Origin: a virus
Lineage: Duplodnaviria > Heunggongvirae > Uroviricota > Caudoviricetes
Direction: 5' to 3' (one strand)
IMG/VR virus record: IMGVR_UViG_2737471827_000007
Span: 1-8,284 of that record
Length of the DNA: 8,284 nt
Positions 1 through 8,284 of the stretch are shown in pieces. A program made the translations under genes and the position numbers. Below the pieces are notes generated by a model that saw only the letters and a list, made by a program, of their open reading frames with translations, did not search any database and was not told where the DNA came from. The stretch's first letter is position 1, and every line of letters begins with the position of its first letter.

Positions 1-642
1 TTAATCGGACGCTTTTAAATTTTTATTTTTCCCAGCAGAAAAATTAGCTTTCCCGCTGTTTTGCAACTCAACAAGAGGAGATAACCGTCGGTAAACAGCC
101 AAAAGTATCTTTAACTGAACCAGTTCATCTGCCCCCGATAGTTGAACCAAGTTTTTACGTTGTTCTTCACTAAGTGCCATCACAGATTCAAGTGATTTAA
201 CTGCGTCAGAAACAAGTTCAATCTCTTTAATTTGATTCTGTATACGCAGCTTCTCTGATTTCAACTTTGCCCATTCTCTTTGTCGATATGTACGCATCAC
301 CTGATCGTAAACTTTGTTGGCAGCCAGAATACTTCCACCAACAGCAGTAACTAACTCAGCAATCTGCCAAGAGATATCAATAAGAGCAGACAATTCAATA
401 AAGCCAGGAGAGGCATACTGAATTTTTTTCACTACAGGACGTAAATCTGGTGGAGTCGCACTGTAAGCCCCTCTAAAAAAGTTCACCACACTGTGCCCCC
501 CCTCCCAAGGCATTGTTGAATATCCTCTTGATCCTCCTTTTAGGCCATAAAAAAAACCATATAGCTGCAAATACTCTTTCGTTAAGACCGCGAAATCAGC
601 TAACTCCCAACGATTATCAAGCTCAATTATAACTTTTTCCAT
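1..642 (-). CDS. hypothetical protein (213 aa), AT-rich cargo gene downstream of ogr; hydrophobic central segment and coiled-coil-like C-terminal half
   Basis: Complete minus-strand ORF: ATG at 642-640, stop TAA at 3-1. Weak SD-like GGTGGAAA just upstream. The first 60 nt are about one-third GC by my count, clearly lower than the GC-rich P/Q/A genes. Protein has a hydrophobic stretch (SPGFIELSALIDISWQIAELVTAVGGSILAA) followed by a charged heptad-like region (KLKSEKLRIQNQIKEIELVSDAVKSLESV). I do not recognise the family. Confidence 0.7.
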   Translation of the reverse strand: MEKVIIELDNRWELADFAVLTKEYLQLYGFFYGLKGGSRGYSTMPWEGGHSVVNFFRGAYSATPPDLRPVVKKIQYASPGFIELSALIDISWQIAELVTAVGGSILAANKVYDQVMRTYRQREWAKLKSEKLRIQNQIKEIELVSDAVKSLESVMALSEEQRKNLVQLSGADELVQLKILLAVYRRLSPLVELQNSGKANFSAGKNKNLKASD

Positions 643-736
643 TTTCCACCAACCTGTCCAACTTTAAAGATTGACTTTTAAGTATATGATAAACATAGTT
701 TATTAAACGTGATCCACTACTTTTAATGAAGAATAT

Positions 737-775
737 TCCCCAAAACAGAAAGCCCCTCGACTGAGGGGCTTTCTG
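737..775 (-). terminator. intrinsic terminator downstream of ogr (also hairpin-forming on + strand)
   Basis: Perfect 13-bp inverted repeat CAGAAAGCCCCTC (745-757) / GAGGGGCTTTCTG (763-775) with 4-nt loop GACT. On the minus strand the stem is followed by TTTTGGGG (complement of 737-744), directly after the ogr stop at 783. Confidence 0.6.
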
Positions 776-782
776 TTTGTAA

Positions 783-1001
783 TTACATCCACATAATTTG
801 CTGCCCTGACGGCAACGGGTGCGGCCTTACGGCGTGGACTTCTCCCGGCTTCACAATGTATCGCTGTACCGACTCATAAGTGATGAACGTGGCGCTGCAA
901 TTCACGTTCTGACACTGGTGATAACGCTCTTTTGTCGTGTCAGTGATATAGCGACTTGTACGCGCATGTGCGGCATGCTGGCATAAAGGACAATGAAACA
1001 T
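783..1001 (-). CDS. ogr: Ogr/Delta-family zinc-finger late-gene transcriptional activator (72 aa)
   Basis: Translation MFHCPLCQHAAHARTSRYITDTTKERYHQCQNVNCSATFITYESVQRYIVKPGEVHAVRPHPLPSGQQIMWM has the C-X2-C-X22-C-X4-C spacing characteristic of P2 Ogr / P4 Delta. It matches P2 Ogr as far as I can recall, and the 72-aa length matches. Start ATG at 1001-999 has SD AGAGG about 8 nt upstream. The six-frame track opens further upstream at a TTG (1064), which I consider non-coding. Confidence 0.9.
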   Translation of the reverse strand: MFHCPLCQHAAHARTSRYITDTTKERYHQCQNVNCSATFITYESVQRYIVKPGEVHAVRPHPLPSGQQIMWM

Positions 1002-1146
1002 CGCGAGCACCTCTTCCGGTTTTGTTGATGGTGCCATTTTAGTTAATTTATCCTTATAAAACAAATAGATAAAATAAAAACATCACTCATCATCTTCTGT
1101 TTCGTACTCCACATCAGAAAGCCTGACCTCAAGCTCCAGGGACGTC
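1002..1146. promoter_or_regulatory. AT-rich divergent intergenic region expected to carry the ogr promoter and an Ogr-dependent late promoter for P-Q
   Basis: About 145 bp of AT-rich sequence between divergent ogr and P. It contains a partial dyad TGT-N10-ACA (1098-1113), whereas the P2 late-promoter element as I remember it is TGT-N12-ACA, so the match is inexact. Transcription start sites cannot be determined from sequence alone. Confidence 0.3.
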
Positions 1147-1206
1147 GTGAAGCCGCTATTATTCAGAAAATGTGTCACCTTAGTGATTGTCCAGTCCTGC
1201 TCGTCT

Positions 1207-2961
1207 ATGACGCGCTTACACGACCCGCGTCGTCAGGCGGCGCTGCTGTACTGGCAGGGGTTTTCCGTGCCGCAGATTGCCGCCATGTTGCAGATGAAAC
1301 GCCCGACGGTGCAGAGCTGGAAACAGCGCGACGGCTGGGACAGCGTTGCCCCCATCAGCCGTGTCGAAATGAGTCTGGAAGCGCGGCTGACCCAGCTCAT
1401 CATCAAACCGCAGAAAACCGGCGGTGACTTCAAGGAAATTGACCTGCTGGGACGCCAGATTGAACGACTGGCACGGGTAAACCGTTACAGTCAGACCGGC
1501 AACGAGGCAGACCTTAATCCGAACGTCGCTAACCGCAACAAAGGCGGACGGCGCAAACCGAAAAAGAATTTTTTCAGTGACGAGGCCATCGAAAAGCTGG
1601 AGCAGATTTTCTTTGAGCAGTCTTTCGATTATCAGTTGCACTGGTATCGCGCCGGGCTTGAGCACCGCATCCGCGATATCCTGAAATCCCGCCAGATTGG
1701 CGCAACGTTTTATTTTTCCCGCGAGGCGCTGCTGCGCGCCCTGAAAACCGGTCATAACCAGATTTTTCTGTCGGCCAGTAAAACGCAGGCGTATGTGTTC
1801 CGCGAATACATCATCGCCTTTGCCCGGCTGGTTGACGTTGACCTGACCGGTGACCCGATTGTCCTGGGCAATAACGGCGCAAAACTGATTTTTCTCGGCA
1901 CCAACTCCAACACCGCGCAGAGTCATAACGGCGACCTGTATGTCGACGAGATTTTCTGGATCCCGAATTTTCAGGTACTGCGTAAGGTGGCATCAGGTAT
2001 GGCCTCACAGAGTCACCTGCGCTCGACCTATTTCTCCACCCCGTCCACGCTGGCGCACGACGCCTACCCGTTCTGGTCGGGTGAACTGTTTAACCGGGGA
2101 CGCGCCAGCGCCGCTGAACGCGTGGAAATCGACGTCAGTCATAACGCCCTTGCCGGAGGTCTTCTCTGTGCGGACGGCCAGTGGCGGCAGATTGTCACCA
2201 TTGAGGACGCCCTGAAAGGTGGCTGCACATTGTTCGACATTGAGCAGCTTAAACGCGAAAACAGCGCCGACGATTTTAAAAACCTGTTCATGTGTGAATT
2301 TGTTGATGACAAGGCATCGGTATTCCCGTTCGAGGAGCTGCAACGCTGCATGGTCGACACGCTGGAAGAATGGGAAGACTATGCGCCGTTTGCCGCAAAT
2401 CCGTTCGGCTCCCGACCGGTATGGATTGGTTACGACCCGTCACACCGTGGCGACAGCGCCGGATGCGTGGTACTGGCACCGCCGGTGGTGGCCGGTGGCA
2501 AATTCAGAATACTTGAGCGTCACCAGTGGAAAGGTATGGACTTTGCCACCCAGGCGGAATCCATCCGCAAACTCACCGAAAAATACAACGTCGAATACAT
2601 CGGTATTGATGCCACCGGCCTCGGTGTCGGCGTGTTCCAGCTTGTGCGCTCGTTCTATCCCGCCGCGCGCGACATCCGCTACACGCCGGAAATGAAAACC
2701 GCAATGGTGCTCAAGGCAAAAGACGTTATCCGCCGTGGCTGTCTGGAATATGACGTCAGCGCCACCGACATCACCAGCTCGTTCATGGCTATCCGCAAGA
2801 CCATGACCAGCAGCGGACGCAGCGCCACCTATGAGGCCAGCCGCAGCGAGGAAGCCAGCCACGCCGACCTCGCCTGGGCGACCATGCACGCCCTGTTAAA
2901 TGAGCCACTCACCGCCGGTATCAGCACTCCGCTGACATCCACCATTCTGGAGTTTTACTGA
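1207..2961 (+). CDS. P: terminase large (ATPase) subunit, P2 gpP-like
   Basis: Long ORF of 584 aa from ATG 1207, or 604 aa from the alternative in-frame GTG at 1147, which has AGGGA 4 nt upstream. N-terminal region PRRQAALLYWQGFSVPQIAAMLQMKRPTVQSWKQRDGWD and overall length fit P2 gpP (about 590 aa from memory). Stop TGA 2959-2961 overlaps the Q start by 1 nt, as in P2. Confidence 0.9.
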   Translation: MTRLHDPRRQAALLYWQGFSVPQIAAMLQMKRPTVQSWKQRDGWDSVAPISRVEMSLEARLTQLIIKPQKTGGDFKEIDLLGRQIERLARVNRYSQTGNEADLNPNVANRNKGGRRKPKKNFFSDEAIEKLEQIFFEQSFDYQLHWYRAGLEHRIRDILKSRQIGATFYFSREALLRALKTGHNQIFLSASKTQAYVFREYIIAFARLVDVDLTGDPIVLGNNGAKLIFLGTNSNTAQSHNGDLYVDEIFWIPNFQVLRKVASGMASQSHLRSTYFSTPSTLAHDAYPFWSGELFNRGRASAAERVEIDVSHNALAGGLLCADGQWRQIVTIEDALKGGCTLFDIEQLKRENSADDFKNLFMCEFVDDKASVFPFEELQRCMVDTLEEWEDYAPFAANPFGSRPVWIGYDPSHRGDSAGCVVLAPPVVAGGKFRILERHQWKGMDFATQAESIRKLTEKYNVEYIGIDATGLGVGVFQLVRSFYPAARDIRYTPEMKTAMVLKAKDVIRRGCLEYDVSATDITSSFMAIRKTMTSSGRSATYEASRSEEASHADLAWATMHALLNEPLTAGISTPLTSTILEFY

Positions 2962-3995
2962 TGAGCAAGAAAAAAGGGAAAACACCGCAACCTGCGGCAA
3001 AAACAATGACCGCCAGCGCCCCGAAAATGGAGGCATTCACCTTTGGTGAGCCGGTGCCGGTACTCGACCGCCGTGACATTCTGGATTACGTCGAATGCAT
3101 CAGTAACGGCAGATGGTATGAGCCACCAGTCAGCTTTACCGGTCTGGCAAAAAGCCTGCGTGCTGCCGTGCATCACAGCTCCCCGATTTACGTCAAACGT
3201 AATATTCTGGCTTCAACGTTTATCCCGCACCCGTGGCTTTCCCAGCAGGATTTCAGCCGTTTTGTGCTGGATTTTCTGGTGTTCGGTAATGCGTTTCTGG
3301 AAAAGCGTTACAGCACCACCGGTAAGGTCATCAGACTGGAAACCTCACCGGCAAAATATACCCGCCGTGGCGTGGAGGAGGATGTTTACTGGTGGGTGCC
3401 GTCCTTCAACGAGCCGACAGCCTTCACGCCCGGCTCCGTGTTTCACCTGCTGGAGCCGGATATTAATCAGGAGCTGTACGGCCTGCCGGAATATCTCAGC
3501 GCCCTTAACTCTGCCTGGCTGAATGAGTCGGCCACGCTGTTCCGCCGCAAGTATTACGAAAACGGCGCACATGCCGGATACATCATGTACGTCACCGATG
3601 CCGTGCAGGACCGCAACGATATCGAAATGCTTCGCGAAAACATGGTTAAGTCGAAAGGCCGCAACAACTTTAAAAACCTGTTTCTCTATGCCCCGCAGGG
3701 GAAAGCTGACGGCATTAAAATTATCCCGCTCAGTGAAGTGGCAACGAAGGACGATTTTTTTAATATCAAAAAAGCCAGTGCCGCAGACCTGCTGGATGCG
3801 CACCGCATCCCCTTTCAGTTGATGGGCGGCAAGCCGGAGAACGTCGGGTCGTTGGGTGATATTGAGAAAGTGGCAAAGGTCTTTGTCCGCAATGAGCTTA
3901 TCCCGTTACAGGACAGGATCCGCGAGATAAACGGCTGGCTCGGTCAGGAGGTCATCCGCTTTAAAAACTACTCACTGGACACTGACAACGGCTAA
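2961..3995 (+). CDS. Q: portal (capsid portal vertex) protein, P2 gpQ-like (344 aa)
   Basis: 344-aa ORF, the same length as P2 gpQ. ATG at 2961 overlaps the P stop (TGATG). It is immediately upstream of a terminator and the cos site, matching P2 Q-cos synteny. Confidence 0.9.
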   Translation: MSKKKGKTPQPAAKTMTASAPKMEAFTFGEPVPVLDRRDILDYVECISNGRWYEPPVSFTGLAKSLRAAVHHSSPIYVKRNILASTFIPHPWLSQQDFSRFVLDFLVFGNAFLEKRYSTTGKVIRLETSPAKYTRRGVEEDVYWWVPSFNEPTAFTPGSVFHLLEPDINQELYGLPEYLSALNSAWLNESATLFRRKYYENGAHAGYIMYVTDAVQDRNDIEMLRENMVKSKGRNNFKNLFLYAPQGKADGIKIIPLSEVATKDDFFNIKKASAADLLDAHRIPFQLMGGKPENVGSLGDIEKVAKVFVRNELIPLQDRIREINGWLGQEVIRFKNYSLDTDNG

Positions 3996-4000
3996 ACATC

Positions 4001-4022
4001 GCCGCCTGCGGGCGGCTTTTTT
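4001..4022 (+). terminator. rho-independent terminator of the P-Q operon
   Basis: GCCGCC (4001-4006), loop TGCG, GGCGGC (4011-4016), followed by TTTTTT (4017-4022), 6 nt after the Q stop codon. Confidence 0.75.
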
Positions 4023-4164
4023 ACACCCCGTCATCACGCCCTCACACACTCACCACCGCACAAAACAGCCCGCAGACACACCAACGCCCCGGTGCACAAT
4101 CTAAACGCCATCAAGACGCGCTCAGACGCTGAAAAAATAAAATCAGCACCACCGCCAGCGCGCA

Positions 4165-4183
4165 GTGCTTTCCCCGCCTCGCC
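4165..4183 (-). other. P2/P4-type cos cohesive-end sequence (19 nt)
   Basis: Plus strand reads GTGCTTTCCCCGCCTCGCC; its reverse complement GGCGAGGCGGGGAAAGCAC is the 19-nt P2 cohesive end as I remember it. It lies about 170 bp beyond the Q stop, consistent with the P2 left-end arrangement (cos-Q-P). Confidence 0.75.
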
Positions 4184-4468
4184 CGCCCGCTTCACGGGGC
4201 GGTTTTAATGCAGTTGCATAGATACTATGGATCCGCACCAGTCCTGACCGCACGCAGCCTGAACGGACATCCCCAACGCATGCAAAAACATTCACTTGTT
4301 GCATGCATAGCTTTTTAAGTACGCCATACCGCAACTGTACATTTTTAAGCAATTGGCAACTTTAAAAAATTTACATTGCTTTCAAGACCTTATCATCCGT
4401 AGTCTCTGTTTTTTACTTTGAGCTACATCAATAAAATCTCAAACATGTTTAATGCAAAGCCCTTGTTA

Positions 4469-4521
4469 CACAACATAGAATGTATGTCTAGAAACAACGA
4501 CATACTATATGTTGTGTTTTT
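4469..4521 (+). terminator. candidate intrinsic terminator or structured RNA element (interrupted 16-bp hairpin plus T5)
   Basis: CACAACATA (4469-4477) pairs with TATGTTGTG (4508-4516) and GTATGTC (4482-4488) pairs with GACATAC (4499-4505), with a 10-nt apical loop, followed immediately by TTTTT (4517-4521). The stem is AU-rich, so this could equally be a 5' leader structure. Confidence 0.35.
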
Positions 4522-4583
4522 CCGGCTCTCTGTTCGGTGATATGCCAAATCACTTTGCGTTTAAACAGAGCATTATTTCAGGG

Positions 4584-4598
4584 CAAGACTTCGCTCAA
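4584..4598 (+). repeat. 15-bp exact direct repeat, copy 1 (CAAGACTTCGCTCAA)
   Basis: Identical 15-mer recurs at 4848-4862. The two copies bracket the small peptide gene and its terminator. Confidence 0.7.
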
Positions 4599-4661
4599 AA
4601 GTCATTCCACCTAAGAAGCGCATATACCGGTGGAAGTTGCCCTCTACTTACAGGAGGCAAT

Positions 4662-4775
4662 ATGAAGAAATGCTATTACTGCATTCTCGTTCTGGCCCTC
4701 TTTGGCTATCCAAACGGTAGTCCGAGTGGTTTGTCAGTAAACGTCAGTAATATCAATGTCAGCATTATGCTTTAA
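4662..4775 (+). CDS. small hydrophobic peptide (37 aa): MKKCYYCILVLALFGYPNGSPSGLSVNVSNINVSIML
   Basis: Consensus SD AGGAGG (4652-4657) 4 nt before ATG 4662; stop TAA 4773-4775; intrinsic terminator follows 12 nt later. N-terminus is KK plus a 12-13 residue hydrophobic stretch, then a Ser/Asn-rich tail. The six-frame track shows a longer in-frame 88-aa ORF from 4509, but that ATG sits inside a hairpin and has no RBS. Confidence 0.45.
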   Translation: MKKCYYCILVLALFGYPNGSPSGLSVNVSNINVSIML

Positions 4776-4787
4776 TATGCTTCAAAC

Positions 4788-4817
4788 AAAAAAACCACCT
4801 GCCAGGGTGGTTTTTTT
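4788..4817. terminator. bidirectional intrinsic terminator (A7-CCACC-loop-GGTGG-T7)
   Basis: AAAAAAACCACC (4788-4799) and GGTGGTTTTTTT (4806-4817) are perfectly complementary, with loop TGCCAG. The T-run on the plus strand and A-run (T-run on minus) let it terminate both the peptide transcript and the convergent A operon. Confidence 0.6.
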
Positions 4818-4847
4818 GCGCCCATCATCAATACGATGAAAGACTGA

Positions 4848-4862
4848 CAAGACTTCGCTCAA
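4848..4862 (+). repeat. 15-bp exact direct repeat, copy 2 (CAAGACTTCGCTCAA)
   Basis: Identical to 4584-4598. It is embedded in a short reiteration of AAGAC(T/G) at 4841-4846, 4849-4854 and 4861-4866. Confidence 0.7.
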
Positions 4863-4958
4863 GACGAATTATGCGTCGACATAAGGTTACCCGCAATGAT
4901 TTTATTAGACTAAATGGATGGCCTTTTATGACCCGGATCAAACGGCTGTCCTTACCGA

Positions 4959-5009
4959 CATGCTAGTCACTCAATAGCATTTAGCCTTCTAATTCAGCAT
5001 GCTATTGAC
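4959..5009. repeat. operator-like repeat cluster: CATGCTA direct copies with an inverted TAGCAT between them
   Basis: CATGCTAGTCAC (4959-4970) and CATGCTATTGAC (4998-5009) match at 10 of 12 positions, 39 bp apart. The inverted hexamer TAGCAT sits at 4975-4980. The cluster lies in non-coding DNA just 3' of A. Confidence 0.35.
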
Positions 5010-5077
5010 CTTCTGCTGCCCCATAACTGCTCCGCATAAGCCATTCAATGCCATATCAAATCACGTTGTGTTTTTAC

Positions 5078-7354
5078 TCAAATGGGTAACGAGAACCCCG
5101 GCCACTCATCAGCAACCGGATACGTGAATTTTTTCCCGTCATAATTTACGGTCGCGCCACGCGCCAGCGCCTCAAGCTCCCATCGTTGCGGCCTGATACC
5201 GTTCTGAGCGAGGTCAACGCGGATACGGGTAATTTGCAATCGTTCAGACCTGGTCAGTCTGGCAGATGGTGCAATTTCATGCGGTTTTAACGGGATTCCG
5301 TTTCTTTGCTGACGATTTGGTGTTCTCAGTCCGTGTTTTAATGCGCCCCTGAGCGCCATCACGACCTCCGGGTCACTCCATTCGATAACACCGTCATCTA
5401 CCAGATTAAGCACTGCTGCGGCGTGCTCAGAAGGTGTGGGAGCCGGTAACGAAGTATCACCACCGGTGAGCTTTCCACAGTTATTGACAGGACTCCGAGG
5501 CGCGGCGATGCCGCTTTTTAAAGTCAAAGGCTCAACGACCGGCACTTTCGGAACAATGCGCCAGTCCGTCGTTCTGGTGATATGAATATGACGCGCGCCG
5601 AGATGCGGCGCGTAAATGCCGACCACTCTCTCGACTTCTTCCTCGTACTCGTTAACGTCATCCGACGGACTACGGGCGACCCTGACAGTCTGACAATCGC
5701 GCGGGACATTTGCCCCACCCTGCGCGCTGATATACAACGCAAAATCACCACTGTCTGCGGCAGCGCGAGCAGCCTCGACGCGTTCGTCAAACTCATCAGC
5801 AATACTGACGCCGCGAGGCAATTTGCGTAGTTCACGGTAAGCCCCCATTGTCGGCAGTCCAACCGTTTTAAATTGCGGGATGCGCCACGTTGACGCCCAT
5901 GCGGTAACAGCCGCGGCAGTATCTTTAAGCGGCTTACCGGTATCGTTATCGAGCTGACCATCCAGTGCATAGCCGTCGATATTTTTTGAAATGTATTTCG
6001 CGATATATCCCGCAGCACCGCCCCGGTTAAGGTGCTTTGCCTGAAAACGGTTTCGCGCGGCTCCTCTTTCGTCACCATCCTCTTTGAGCGCATAGCGACG
6101 CATGATTTCGATAATCTGGTTACGCTGGCGTGGATTACAAAAAAGCATCATATGCCAGTGCGGCGTTCCGTCGTGGTGTGGCTCGACGACACGCAAACCG
6201 TAGACCTGTAAATCATTATCCTTGAATGCCGTGCGCATCAGGCTCCAGATGCGGCAGAGATAACGCTGCGCATCCTTTGGATTAAATGCCTCATCGTTCC
6301 AGCCGTGATTAAGCTGAACGGTTTTACTTTCGCCTTTTCTGACCTGACGAGTCGGGTGATACTTTGACGGCGCGGTCAGCGTGATAAACATCCCCACATC
6401 ACCCTCTGCGGCGGCGTAACGCTCAATACCGGCAATGGTGTTCATCAGCTCCATCCGGCGAATTTCAGGATTAGAAATACTGCCCATCACCTTACTGATA
6501 AGGTCGATGCGCTCGCCGGTTTCCCTGTTTTCAAGGTCACACGATTTAAGAAATTCCAGATTTGCCTGGCGGCGCGCACGCACATCACGAATGGCGTGTT
6601 TACTGGCATAAGGAGAACGGTCTTTATTGACCTCCCCGACAGCTATCAGTAACGCTTCATGCCAGCGCATACGCTGGCCTTTAAGCTGATGAGTCCACCA
6701 CTCATCGTTAAACAGACGGGCAATGGCAGAATATGCCTGCCTCGTGGTCATCTGCCCTTTACGGTATTTTTTCCAGTAGAGCGGGGAAATATTGAAAGCA
6801 CGTGCAGCGCCAGCAACATGACCATAGAGGTGAGCCTGCGCCTCATCCGTAAACAGCGATTCTTTTTCGCCATGCGCATCCACCCAGGCATCGCTGAGTT
6901 CCTCATACATCATGAAAAGCTGCGATGAGATACGGGCAGCAAACTTTTTCAGCTCCTTGTCATTCATTCCCGGCAGGCGCGCATAGTGGTCACGCTCTGC
7001 CAGAAACAGTAACGACGCGTCGGTGTTCATTTCATGGCGCTGATTCACACGCTCAATGCGCGGCCATAAACGACGCTGAAAAGTGGATGTGAGGAAATAA
7101 AACCCGTGCACCGGGCTTTTATTGCGCCGGATGTAGTCATAGCGTGAAGTAAACAGCGAGCGCAAAAAGTAAGGCAGGCGGTTAATCGTGGATAAAACAC
7201 CTTGCACCTGACGCATCTCGTCACGTGTAAGGGGTCTTTCGCGCCCGACGGCCTCGCGTGGCGCGTTCCATGCATAAGCACCGGTAAACGCCTTACCGGT
7301 GCCTGCAGCAAATGCTGACGGAGGGACAAAACGCCCGGAGGCTTTAACGGCCAT
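5078..7354 (-). CDS. A: rolling-circle replication initiation endonuclease, P2 gpA-like (HUH/Y-X3-Y)
   Basis: 758 aa from ATG 7354 (the ORF opens at TTG 7396, giving 772 aa); P2 gpA is about 761 aa from memory. Contains HUH-type motif PHWHMM and paired catalytic tyrosines in YIAKYISKNIDGY. Confidence 0.9.
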   Translation of the reverse strand: MAVKASGRFVPPSAFAAGTGKAFTGAYAWNAPREAVGRERPLTRDEMRQVQGVLSTINRLPYFLRSLFTSRYDYIRRNKSPVHGFYFLTSTFQRRLWPRIERVNQRHEMNTDASLLFLAERDHYARLPGMNDKELKKFAARISSQLFMMYEELSDAWVDAHGEKESLFTDEAQAHLYGHVAGAARAFNISPLYWKKYRKGQMTTRQAYSAIARLFNDEWWTHQLKGQRMRWHEALLIAVGEVNKDRSPYASKHAIRDVRARRQANLEFLKSCDLENRETGERIDLISKVMGSISNPEIRRMELMNTIAGIERYAAAEGDVGMFITLTAPSKYHPTRQVRKGESKTVQLNHGWNDEAFNPKDAQRYLCRIWSLMRTAFKDNDLQVYGLRVVEPHHDGTPHWHMMLFCNPRQRNQIIEIMRRYALKEDGDERGAARNRFQAKHLNRGGAAGYIAKYISKNIDGYALDGQLDNDTGKPLKDTAAAVTAWASTWRIPQFKTVGLPTMGAYRELRKLPRGVSIADEFDERVEAARAAADSGDFALYISAQGGANVPRDCQTVRVARSPSDDVNEYEEEVERVVGIYAPHLGARHIHITRTTDWRIVPKVPVVEPLTLKSGIAAPRSPVNNCGKLTGGDTSLPAPTPSEHAAAVLNLVDDGVIEWSDPEVVMALRGALKHGLRTPNRQQRNGIPLKPHEIAPSARLTRSERLQITRIRVDLAQNGIRPQRWELEALARGATVNYDGKKFTYPVADEWPGFSLPI
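5484..5503 (-). other. candidate replication origin / gpA nick site inside the A coding sequence
   Basis: Minus strand reads GCGCCTCGGAGTCCTGTCAA. This matches what I recall as the P2 ori sequence cleaved by gpA, and P2 ori is known to lie within the 3' part of gene A. The match is to memory only. Confidence 0.3.
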
Positions 7355-7619
7355 ATGAGCCAAAAGCCTCTGAACAACGCCTGCTGAGTTGCTCAACCTG
7401 CGCGTTTAAATCAGCAAAAGACTTTGCGCTTCCGGTCAGAATATCGTGATGCATCAGGCTGGAAACGAGCTGGCTTAATTTCGGATAATAACCAACCACC
7501 GCCAGCCATTCCTGACCGGCGTTTTTACCGCTTTCCGCTCTCTTTTTCTCGTGGAGAATAAACTGAAAGCTGTCACTGGTAACGACATAACGTTCGCCAA
7601 TTTCAATACGAATACTCAT
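7344..7619 (-). CDS. hypothetical small protein (91 aa) upstream of and overlapping A; early-operon small ORF
   Basis: ATG at 7619 with SD GGAG 6 nt upstream; stop overlaps the A start (7354) by 11 nt, suggesting coupled expression. Translation MSIRIEIGERYVVTSDSFQFILHEKK... has no motif I recognise and no Cys cluster, so it is not an Ogr- or DksA-like finger. Confidence 0.6.
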   Translation of the reverse strand: MSIRIEIGERYVVTSDSFQFILHEKKRAESGKNAGQEWLAVVGYYPKLSQLVSSLMHHDILTGSAKSFADLNAQVEQLSRRCSEAFGSYGR

Positions 7620-7699
7620 GCCGTTCTCCGGTAATGTTTGTTTTTTGCTTCAAAGACTGACTGGCAGGAAACACAACGCGTGGCTGACGGATATCCGGC

Positions 7700-8284
7700 A
7701 TGTTCACAAAATTAATTCAATTGGATGAATTTTCCGGGCAACACCCAATTCACGGACTGCCGCCACTGGCGGAGGCCAACCCTGAAATGACGTTCCTGGA
7801 AAAAGCAGAAATCGAAAAACTGTTAAATGTTTTGGCTGGTGATGACTTACTTGTCGCGCTTTTATGTCTGAGCACTGGAGGAAGATGGACGGAAGTTGCC
7901 ACGCTAAAACCAGCACAGATTACAAATTGCAGGGTTACCTTCCTGAAAACCAAAAACGGTAAAAAGCGAACCGTGCCGATTTCTGAGGAACTGGAGAAAA
8001 AAGTTAAAGAGGAGGCCAGCGCCAAATTATTCAAAGTTGATTATGAGAAATTTTGCGGGATTTTACGCAGAGTGAAACCTGATATACCACCCAATCAGGC
8101 AACCCACATCCTGCGGCATACATTCGCAAGCCATTTCATGATGAATGGGGGCAATATAATCGCACTGCAACAGATTCTGGGACATGCGAGCATTCAGCAG
8201 ACGATGGCCTATGCGCACCTTGCGCCTGACTATCTGCAAAATGCCGTCGCTCTGAATCCACTAAAAGGCGGAGTGACGTTATAA
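7700..8284 (+). CDS. tyrosine recombinase (phage integrase family), catalytic domain only, 194 aa
   Basis: Box I TGGRWTE, box II HILRHTFASHF, and LGHASIQQTMAYAHL with the catalytic Tyr. An in-frame TGA at 7685-7687 limits any N-terminal extension to 4 codons, so the protein lacks the usual arm- and core-binding N-terminal domains of full integrases (330-400 aa). There is no obvious SD. Confidence 0.8.
   Translation: MFTKLIQLDEFSGQHPIHGLPPLAEANPEMTFLEKAEIEKLLNVLAGDDLLVALLCLSTGGRWTEVATLKPAQITNCRVTFLKTKNGKKRTVPISEELEKKVKEEASAKLFKVDYEKFCGILRRVKPDIPPNQATHILRHTFASHFMMNGGNIIALQQILGHASIQQTMAYAHLAPDYLQNAVALNPLKGGVTL

Follow-up and report, generated by a model that had tools for sequence, protein, structure and literature searches.

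The window analysed in this work is a stretch of 8,284 nucleotides (positions 1 to 8,284 of the IMG/VR virus record IMGVR_UViG_2737471827_000007), and its first 642 nucleotides carry a gene for a protein of 213 amino acids. The gene was acquired horizontally and is cargo (a moron) of a P2-like prophage of Escherichia coli, in which it lies between ogr and the phage attachment site (att). As judged from sequence comparison, its product is clearly a solo copy of the C-terminal domain, about 205 amino acids long, of PD-T4-10B, the toxic component of a two-gene phage defence system, and proteins that consist of this domain are the norm in the family.

Homology to the C-terminal domain of PD-T4-10B

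Searches of Pfam, PHROGs and NCBIfam with the 213-amino acid protein gave nothing meaningful, and no homology to a housekeeping or host-core family was found in Pfam or NCBIfam. A first-pass annotation of the window, made from the sequence alone, had recognised no family either. This has to be revised, because the protein was matched by the PADLOC profile PD-T4-10_B (PDLC04024) with E 1.3e-34, residues 3-201 aligning to positions 139-346 of the 353 profile positions. Two further PADLOC profiles matched (PDLC04025, E 7.1e-23; PDLC04026, E 3.2e-19). Comparison of the profile of the short proteins with that of the long forms (see below) by hhalign gave a probability of 100% and E 5.8e-60 across the whole short protein, and BLASTP against a full-length long form (P0198) detected 29% identity (E 4e-25). 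The homology extends over all 213 amino acids and corresponds to the C-terminal approximately 205 residues of PD-T4-10B, with the shared motifs PW-GG-S-VNFF, IQYASPG and LKILL-YRR.

PD-T4-10 was described as a two-gene system of E. coli ECOR65 that is active against T-even phages and was classed as a toxin-antitoxin-type abortive-infection system (Vassallo et al. 2022, PMC9519451). In that system B is toxic, A neutralises B, and deletion of B abolishes resistance to T4; no function was predicted beyond DUF6575. The published PD-T4-10 data concern the ECOR65 system. Both PD-T4-10 and the gene studied here are found on mobile elements of E. coli.

Short proteins are the majority architecture of the family

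The family was searched exhaustively with HMMER, using a profile built from 115 sequences and a cutoff of E <=0.001. The profile matched 797 clusters (50% identity), most of them with proteins of 205-245 amino acids, and such short proteins are the majority architecture. Long proteins (320-400 amino acids) have an additional N-terminal region of about 130 residues, which matches DUF6575 (PF20215). A third, rare architecture is represented by P0208 and P0233, which share a different N-terminal region before the domain; a scan of P0233 (401 amino acids) detected a TRADD-like N domain (E 3.2e-5) and EAD1 (E 0.0086, below threshold).

The long forms are preceded by an abutting or overlapping open reading frame (ORF) of 114-145 amino acids. 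Its match to PD-T4-10_A is clear in loci L071 (E 2.9e-27) and L075 (E 1.7e-21); the one in L062 is weak, and the upstream ORFs of L054 and L064, which have no PADLOC match of their own, cluster with the L062 copy. No conserved neighbour was found by neighbour clustering in 47 short-form loci, and neighbour clustering, inspection of small ORFs, Rfam searches and folding of 5' regions revealed no partner of the short forms. The solo architecture is the family norm, and the gene behaves as a unit on its own.

In one locus (L070, 659-1653) a long-form gene was found to be split: an ORF of 123 amino acids, which corresponds to the N-terminal region of PD-T4-10_B (E 7.5e-21), is separated by six bases from a downstream ORF of 205 amino acids that comprises the C-terminal domain. 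The split may be an artefact (a frameshift or a stop codon), or it may be natural, in which case it may indicate the route by which solo forms originated.

Since the B homologue is toxic in the absence of A, a toxin of this kind might be held in check by an unrecognised partner, such as an antisense or 5'-untranslated-region RNA (as in type I or type III toxin-antitoxin systems), a tiny peptide, or an antitoxin whose gene lies at another place in the genome. Small ORFs of 44-51 amino acids do occur beside some homologues, but no small ORF is conserved across the loci. Moreover, the 5' region of the 213-amino acid gene is neither conserved nor structured (folding z +0.8) and had no match in an Rfam scan, and those homologues that are single-gene cassettes bounded by attC elements (see below) leave no room for a partner. 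We give this explanation little credence.

The gene was inserted between the ogr terminator and the attachment site

The 213-amino acid ORF is intact and has an ATG start codon, and its stop codon lies at the window edge. Upstream extension of the frame is not possible. No ORF of at least 40 amino acids overlaps the gene, nor does any of at least 20 amino acids with a family signal. RefSeq annotates the product as 'hypothetical protein' (WP_000416606.1), so the sequence itself is not new. The gene and its surroundings comprise the following features:

1 to 642, minus strand: coding sequence of 213 amino acids, stand-alone homologue of the PD-T4-10B C-terminal domain of about 205 amino acids (ORF list, PADLOC PD-T4-10_B, hhalign, family alignment, AlphaFold2)
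643 to 749, minus strand: AT-rich (30% GC) 5' region that arrived with the gene (boundaries of the phage 899 attP alignment, GC content)
743 to 778, no strand assigned: ogr terminator, a 16-bp perfect palindromic hairpin at the boundary between P2 backbone and insertion (RNA folding)
783 to 1001, minus strand: ogr, 72 amino acids, Ogr/Delta zinc finger, the final backbone gene before the insertion (Pfam PF04606, E 2e-21; ogrK in RefSeq)

Positions 1-1100 of the window are 100% identical to the complete genome of E. coli Res13-Lact-PEB01-20 (NZ_CP062868.1, locus L001), in which the gene is flanked by fieF and ogrK and marks one edge of a P2-like prophage; extensive deletions have affected this prophage, the other end of which is at cpxP. 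The flanks were read from this very close relative of the source strain because the best matches among complete genomes cover only 90% of the window, lacking about 804 bp or containing an ISVsa5 insertion. The attL/attR core was recognised as a 43-46-bp direct repeat, AAAAAAACCCCCACATCATGTGGGGGAAGACAGGGATGGTGTC, at L001 11873-11918 and 19603-19645. The gene (L001 12001-12642) falls between the two copies and is therefore inside the prophage, and the att repeats bear out the position between ogr and the site of integrase action that the first-pass annotation had assigned to it. Just inside each copy of the core there are paired GTCCACA repeats, which we take to be the arm-type motif of the P2 integrase (consensus TGTGGACA), the match being assumed.

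The extent of the insertion was defined by comparison with phage 899 (PV533660), in which the stop codons of ogr and int are 272 bp apart. Alignment of this interval with the reconstituted attP of the prophage showed a single gap of 761 bp, corresponding to window positions -11 to 749, i.e. the 642-bp gene plus flanks of 107 bp (upstream) and 12 bp (downstream). Similarity to P2-like phages begins again at window 748-750, and on the other side the P arm of att starts 12 bp after the stop codon of the gene. The unit thus has the ogr terminator on one side and the P arm of attP on the other, which makes the gene the outermost prophage gene in the lysogen, adjoining fieF. In about a dozen other prophages at the fieF site, ogr leads straight to fieF without any cargo.

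The composition of the insertion is that of foreign DNA. The GC content of the gene is 40.0% (32% at third codon positions, GC3), and that of the 107 bp upstream is 29.9%, compared with 50.7% for ogr, 57.0% for terminase gene P (GC3 70%), 53.0% for portal gene Q and 53.4% for replication gene A. The acquisition of the gene as a moron, suggested in the first-pass annotation from its AT-richness relative to the P2 backbone, is confirmed by this deviation and by the absence of the 761 bp from related P2-like phages.

The gene has terminators on both sides. The hairpin at 743-778, directly after the ogr stop codon (783), has a folding energy of -28.3 kcal/mol (z -6.9; none of 200 shuffled sequences was as good), which agrees with the earlier statement that the gene sits behind the ogr terminator. 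In the lysogen, the next element downstream of the gene is the att-core hairpin, CCCCCACAUGAUGUGGGGG, which is followed by U8 and represents a canonical intrinsic terminator 83-128 nucleotides downstream. A Shine-Dalgarno-like motif, GGTGG, is present at 646-650. The att core is itself a hairpin-plus-U8 terminator located downstream of cpxP, and integration duplicated it (L001 11873-11918 and 19603-19645). We presume that it is the 3' end of the small RNA CpxQ, although Rfam gave no CpxQ match here. The copy on the fieF side would end the transcript of the 213-amino acid gene, and it could provide this transcript with a CpxQ-like 3' end.

The ogr-att junction as a cargo site

To see how often the junction is occupied, IMG/VR prophages with sequence beyond ogr were surveyed (n=47). 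In most of them ogr leads straight into a host gene (a yegQ-type U32 peptidase gene, fieF or a pyruvate formate-lyase gene). One of the 47 has the 213-amino acid gene (L084), and two have another ORF of 133 amino acids (L107 and L114). Since the junction is usually empty, it is best described as an occasional cargo site, and the idea of a high-turnover hotspot was rejected. The 133-amino acid ORF (L114 4271-4672, minus strand, and L107) is an alternative cargo of the ogr-fieF junction and had no Pfam or PADLOC match.

Vassallo et al. 2022 (PMC9519451) reported P2 hotspots at two places only, the A-Q interval and the fun locus, and ogr is not mentioned by Rousset et al. 2022 (PMC9122126). The A-Q interval of the window, where the tin/old hotspot is located, spans 3996-5077 and contains no intact gene: it is AT-rich (37-45% GC), has no ORF longer than 88 amino acids and gave no family match. 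Its part at about 4340-5090 shares 86-88% identity with a region annotated as 'hypothetical protein' in other P2-like phages, and it is in the A-Q part of the prophage that related strains have the approximately 804-bp deletion or the ISVsa5 insertion mentioned above.

Decay and distribution of the prophage

The host element is a decayed P2-like prophage between fieF and cpxP. At window 1065-1217 (L001 13083-13217) a 135-bp 3' fragment of gene D abuts terminase gene P; genes O through most of D have therefore been lost. At window 7619-7700 (L001 18812-18895) a TraR/DksA fragment abuts an N-terminally truncated integrase gene (194 amino acids). Other strains have different deletions of the same prophage, and ogr and the 213-amino acid gene are kept in all of them.

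Of 5426 complete E. coli genomes, 160 contain the gene, invariably on the chromosome, with at least 99% DNA identity and an identical protein, and always on the fieF side of the P2-like prophage. It is retained in at least five internal-deletion states of the prophage and also in apparently intact ones, such as that of AR_451, in which all late genes are present.

A search of plasmids yielded two matches. One of these, an 80-kb linear Salmonella enterica record designated 'plasmid unnamed1' (NZ_CP092913.1, L164), is a mis-assigned chromosomal contig, as it carries fieF, pfkA and other chromosomal genes. It contains the same P2-like prophage with an identical 213-amino acid protein at the Salmonella fieF site, which suggests that the phage bearing the gene has moved recently.

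The ORF equals only part of PD-T4-10B and the prophage around it is decayed, so it might be seen as a non-functional remnant of a truncated PD-T4-10 operon. We consider this very improbable: the start of the short forms coincides with one and the same domain boundary in hundreds of clusters from different phyla, and they keep the invariant motifs, the 761-bp insertion is clean, without flanking traces of A or DUF6575, and the protein is identical in the 160 genomes, intact prophages included. The family-wide conservation of the short architecture effectively excludes a truncated pseudogene.

Predicted structure and the helix after the YASPG motif

The AlphaFold2 model of the protein (115-sequence alignment; mean predicted local distance difference test score 85.3, predicted template modelling score 0.57) has an N-terminal alpha/beta part with strands 2-8, 70-75 and 80-86 and helices 14-36 and 49-61. 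The remainder consists of helix 88-103, a 50-residue helix (105-154) and helices 159-168 and 173-195. These long predicted helices account for the coiled-coil-like C-terminus noted in the first-pass annotation. Y28, G48, G49, S51, Y76, S78, P79, G80, K178 and R185 are invariant in the family, and no classical catalytic constellation is evident among them. Sequence-profile searches of the PDB gave only chance matches for short and long forms alike, and the structure prediction and Foldseek comparison proposed earlier produced no solved fold, as the AlphaFold2 model found nothing at E <=0.001 in the PDB and BFVD.

A systematic difference in hydrophobicity between short and long forms was seen in the helix that follows the invariant YASPG, when the alignment of short forms (A2) was compared with that of long forms (A4). 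Hydrophobicity was expressed as the Kyte-Doolittle 19-residue maximum, for which the usual transmembrane threshold is 1.6. The median is 2.11 in the short forms, 106 of 115 reaching at least 1.6, and 0.67 in the long forms, among which 1 of 39 does so. The typical short-form helix, LLLVAGTVAGIVAAVCAAI, shows small-xxx-small spacing with GxxxG-like patterns. The hydrophobic segment that had been noted in the E. coli protein is real, since residues 80-108 are its most hydrophobic stretch, but the maximum (1.35) stays below the threshold. Membrane association, which had been suggested for it, is accordingly not predicted by this measure for the 213-amino acid protein, though it is for most of its short-form relatives.

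Genomic contexts of the short forms

Some homologues reside in integron cassette arrays. Co-directional ORFs divided by attC-type repeats (TAAC...GTTA) surround the gene in Pseudomonas sp. G34 (L016), Vibrio penaeicida (L020) and Alicycliphilus (L035), where it forms one unit of the array, and three further Vibrio loci (L007-L009) have a cassette-like layout as well. An attC-like element directly follows the stop codon in roughly a dozen of the 47 short-form loci, a number that is approximate because it comes from ad hoc scans with two detectors, of which one was too stringent and the other too permissive (9% of control windows were positive). No attC-like element was found on either side of the E. 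coli copy.

Other homologues reside in prophages. In Pseudomonas GM80 and a relative, the homologue is in a prophage beside a candidate defence gene of the PDC-S21/DUF4917 (SIR2-like) type and a CI-type repressor gene. In these two Pseudomonas prophages (L013 8649-9656 and L018 8636-9637) the order is homologue, PDC-S21/DUF4917 gene (E 2.5e-97) and S24 repressor gene of the CI type, an arrangement that looks like a small prophage defence cluster. Among long forms, P0198 and its A gene are located in a defence island, beside NurA/HerA-like and DruA genes. The domain is thus mobile both as integron cassettes and as prophage cargo.

The neighbourhood of the homologues was also inspected for defence genes, as the first-pass annotation had proposed. 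Genes at most two positions from short forms matched 183 PADLOC families (E <=1e-5), compared with 49 for genes at least six positions away, a comparison that is crude because redundancy of the models inflates the counts. The families matched near the short forms include PifA, ThsB, AbiU, GajA, HmaC, PD-Lambda-4_A and restriction-modification enzymes. These observations point towards defence contexts for part of the family.

Possible function of the 213-amino acid protein

The explanation that we favour is that the 761-bp moron, as the outermost gene of a P2-like temperate prophage beside fieF, provides the lysogen with a single-gene factor that acts against phages, or excludes superinfecting ones, by abortive infection. 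The protein would be harmless without a dedicated antitoxin and would be switched on by infection. We regard expression in the lysogen and a function of this kind as about an even call. The guess of an abortive-infection or exclusion protein, which had been made from sequence features, gains support from the homology to a validated abortive-infection toxin and from the position of some homologues among defence genes. As to the effector step, the most likely guess is that it is directed at the membrane, through the conserved helix after YASPG and the long helical hairpin; provided that the protein has a defence role, membrane insertion or oligomeric pore formation by the hydrophobic helix of the short forms is possible, if somewhat doubtful. 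Defence function, abortive-infection mode and membrane target are in this sense what we infer.

Several observations weigh against this explanation. The defence role of the 213-amino acid protein, as of every short form, is deduced from sequence comparison, and the neighbour comparison described above is one of raw counts. The protein has no Pfam match to DUF6575 and covers only the C-terminal domain of PD-T4-10B, and the toxic part of PD-T4-10B could be either half of that protein. The overlapping upstream A gene that accompanies the long forms is absent: no candidate ORF of at least 20 amino acids for PD-T4-10A was found around the gene, the 140 bp between the gene and ogr contain the ogr terminator, and there is no physical room for it. 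With the antitoxin A and DUF6575 missing, the locus is not a complete PD-T4-10 system. A consensus scan of the coding strand of 643-749 found no sigma-70-like site, and the 107-bp upstream region shows no conservation among the closest homologues, so that an own promoter is at best plausible. The upstream region that the first-pass annotation had ascribed to the gene is real in so far as the 107 AT-rich bases belong to the same insertion, but no promoter was found in it. A tblastn search of 50,697 deposited phage genomes revealed no homologue. Of the 115 aligned short forms, only one is less hydrophobic than the E. coli protein, which has D88 and E96 in the helix after YASPG, and this helix is polar or amphipathic in the long forms, so that a membrane mechanism cannot be the shared ancestral one. 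Finally, in the EAD1-TRADD-N fusions (P0208 and P0233) the domain occupies the C-terminal slot, which in bacterial TRADD-N proteins usually holds sensor, repeat or adaptor modules, effectors or EADs being N-terminal (Kaur et al. 2021, PMC8195603). As the domain is C-terminal to TRADD-N, its role is ambiguous between effector and sensor or adaptor.

The place of the domain in the TRADD-N fusions also fits the idea that the protein is a counter-defence decoy, that is, the regulatory or oligomerisation domain of PD-T4-10B without the toxin, which poisons or titrates PD-T4-10-type systems or their trigger in infected hosts. The lack of DUF6575 and of an antitoxin and the fact that the carrier is a temperate phage would fit such a role. 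Short forms, however, outnumber long forms and occur mostly in integron cassette arrays and in chromosomes without an adjacent long form, and the att end of a prophage is the classic position of lysogen-expressed morons that benefit the host. None of the deposited phage genomes has the gene, and the presence of the hydrophobic helix in short but not in long forms argues for a function of their own. We consider a decoy quite improbable.

A lysogenic-conversion or fitness factor unrelated to defence, such as a protein of the envelope or of the stress response, or a module that keeps the element stable in the manner of an addiction system, deserves somewhat more attention, even if we think it unlikely. 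Retention of the gene through many independent prophage decays is compatible with it, as are the many non-defence functions encoded by integron cassettes and the absence of any fold or family hint of an enzymatic defence activity. On the other hand, the sole characterised relative is a defence toxin, several homologues are located beside defence genes, and no homology to housekeeping families was found.

Returning to the anti-phage factor that we favour, a more far-reaching form of it can be formulated. In this form the domain of about 205 amino acids would suffice on its own, without an antitoxin, as a suicide or exclusion effector and would represent the minimal functional core of PD-T4-10; the short forms would have evolved a hydrophobic, glycine-zipper-like membrane-attack helix and would be disseminated as single-gene integron cassettes and phage morons, and the ogr-att junction would be a third cargo site of P2-like phages, not described before. 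We offer this as a speculative proposal, which in its entirety is more doubtful than the anti-phage role itself.

Relation to known systems and implications

The gene shares with the tin, old and fun morons of P2 the character of an AT-rich foreign gene of a P2-like prophage, probably expressed in the lysogen and likely anti-phage. It differs from them in location, since the known sites are the A-Q interval (tin/old) and Z/fun, whereas the 213-amino acid gene is at ogr-att. As attC-bounded single-gene cassettes, the short forms of Pseudomonas, Vibrio and Alicycliphilus resemble the integron defence cassettes described in a recent preprint (bioRxiv 10.1101/2024.07.02.601719); the E. coli copy, by contrast, is without an attC-like element and rides on a phage. 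The EAD1-TRADD-N proteins (Kaur et al. 2021, PMC8195603) are related through P0208 and P0233, which tie the domain to NTPase-regulated counter-invader conflict systems, but the window protein has no such adaptor domains. The helix after YASPG, which is more hydrophobic in short than in long forms, distinguishes the protein from PD-T4-10B beyond the missing parts. A literature search returned no report of a phage-defence test on any member of the solo-domain family.

Defence cargo borne by prophages is well known. What the present analysis adds is, first, that the part of PD-T4-10B outside DUF6575 is an autonomous and widespread domain, with about 800 clusters at 50% identity; second, that its dominant form is solo and antitoxin-free and is spread by integron cassettes and prophages; and third, that a P2-like phage carries the solo domain at ogr-att, outside the two described P2 hotspots.

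PD-T4-10 is a validated system of unexplained mechanism, and its B protein was described as largely devoid of predicted domains. Should the solo form not protect, this would show that DUF6575 is the seat of PD-T4-10B toxicity, and the existence of solo forms would have to be explained in another way. If it does protect, the 213-amino acid protein would be a minimal system for dissecting the toxic or sensing activity, and the question would arise how a toxin-related protein stays silent without an antitoxin. The ogr-att junction would then be a third cargo site on the defence map of P2.

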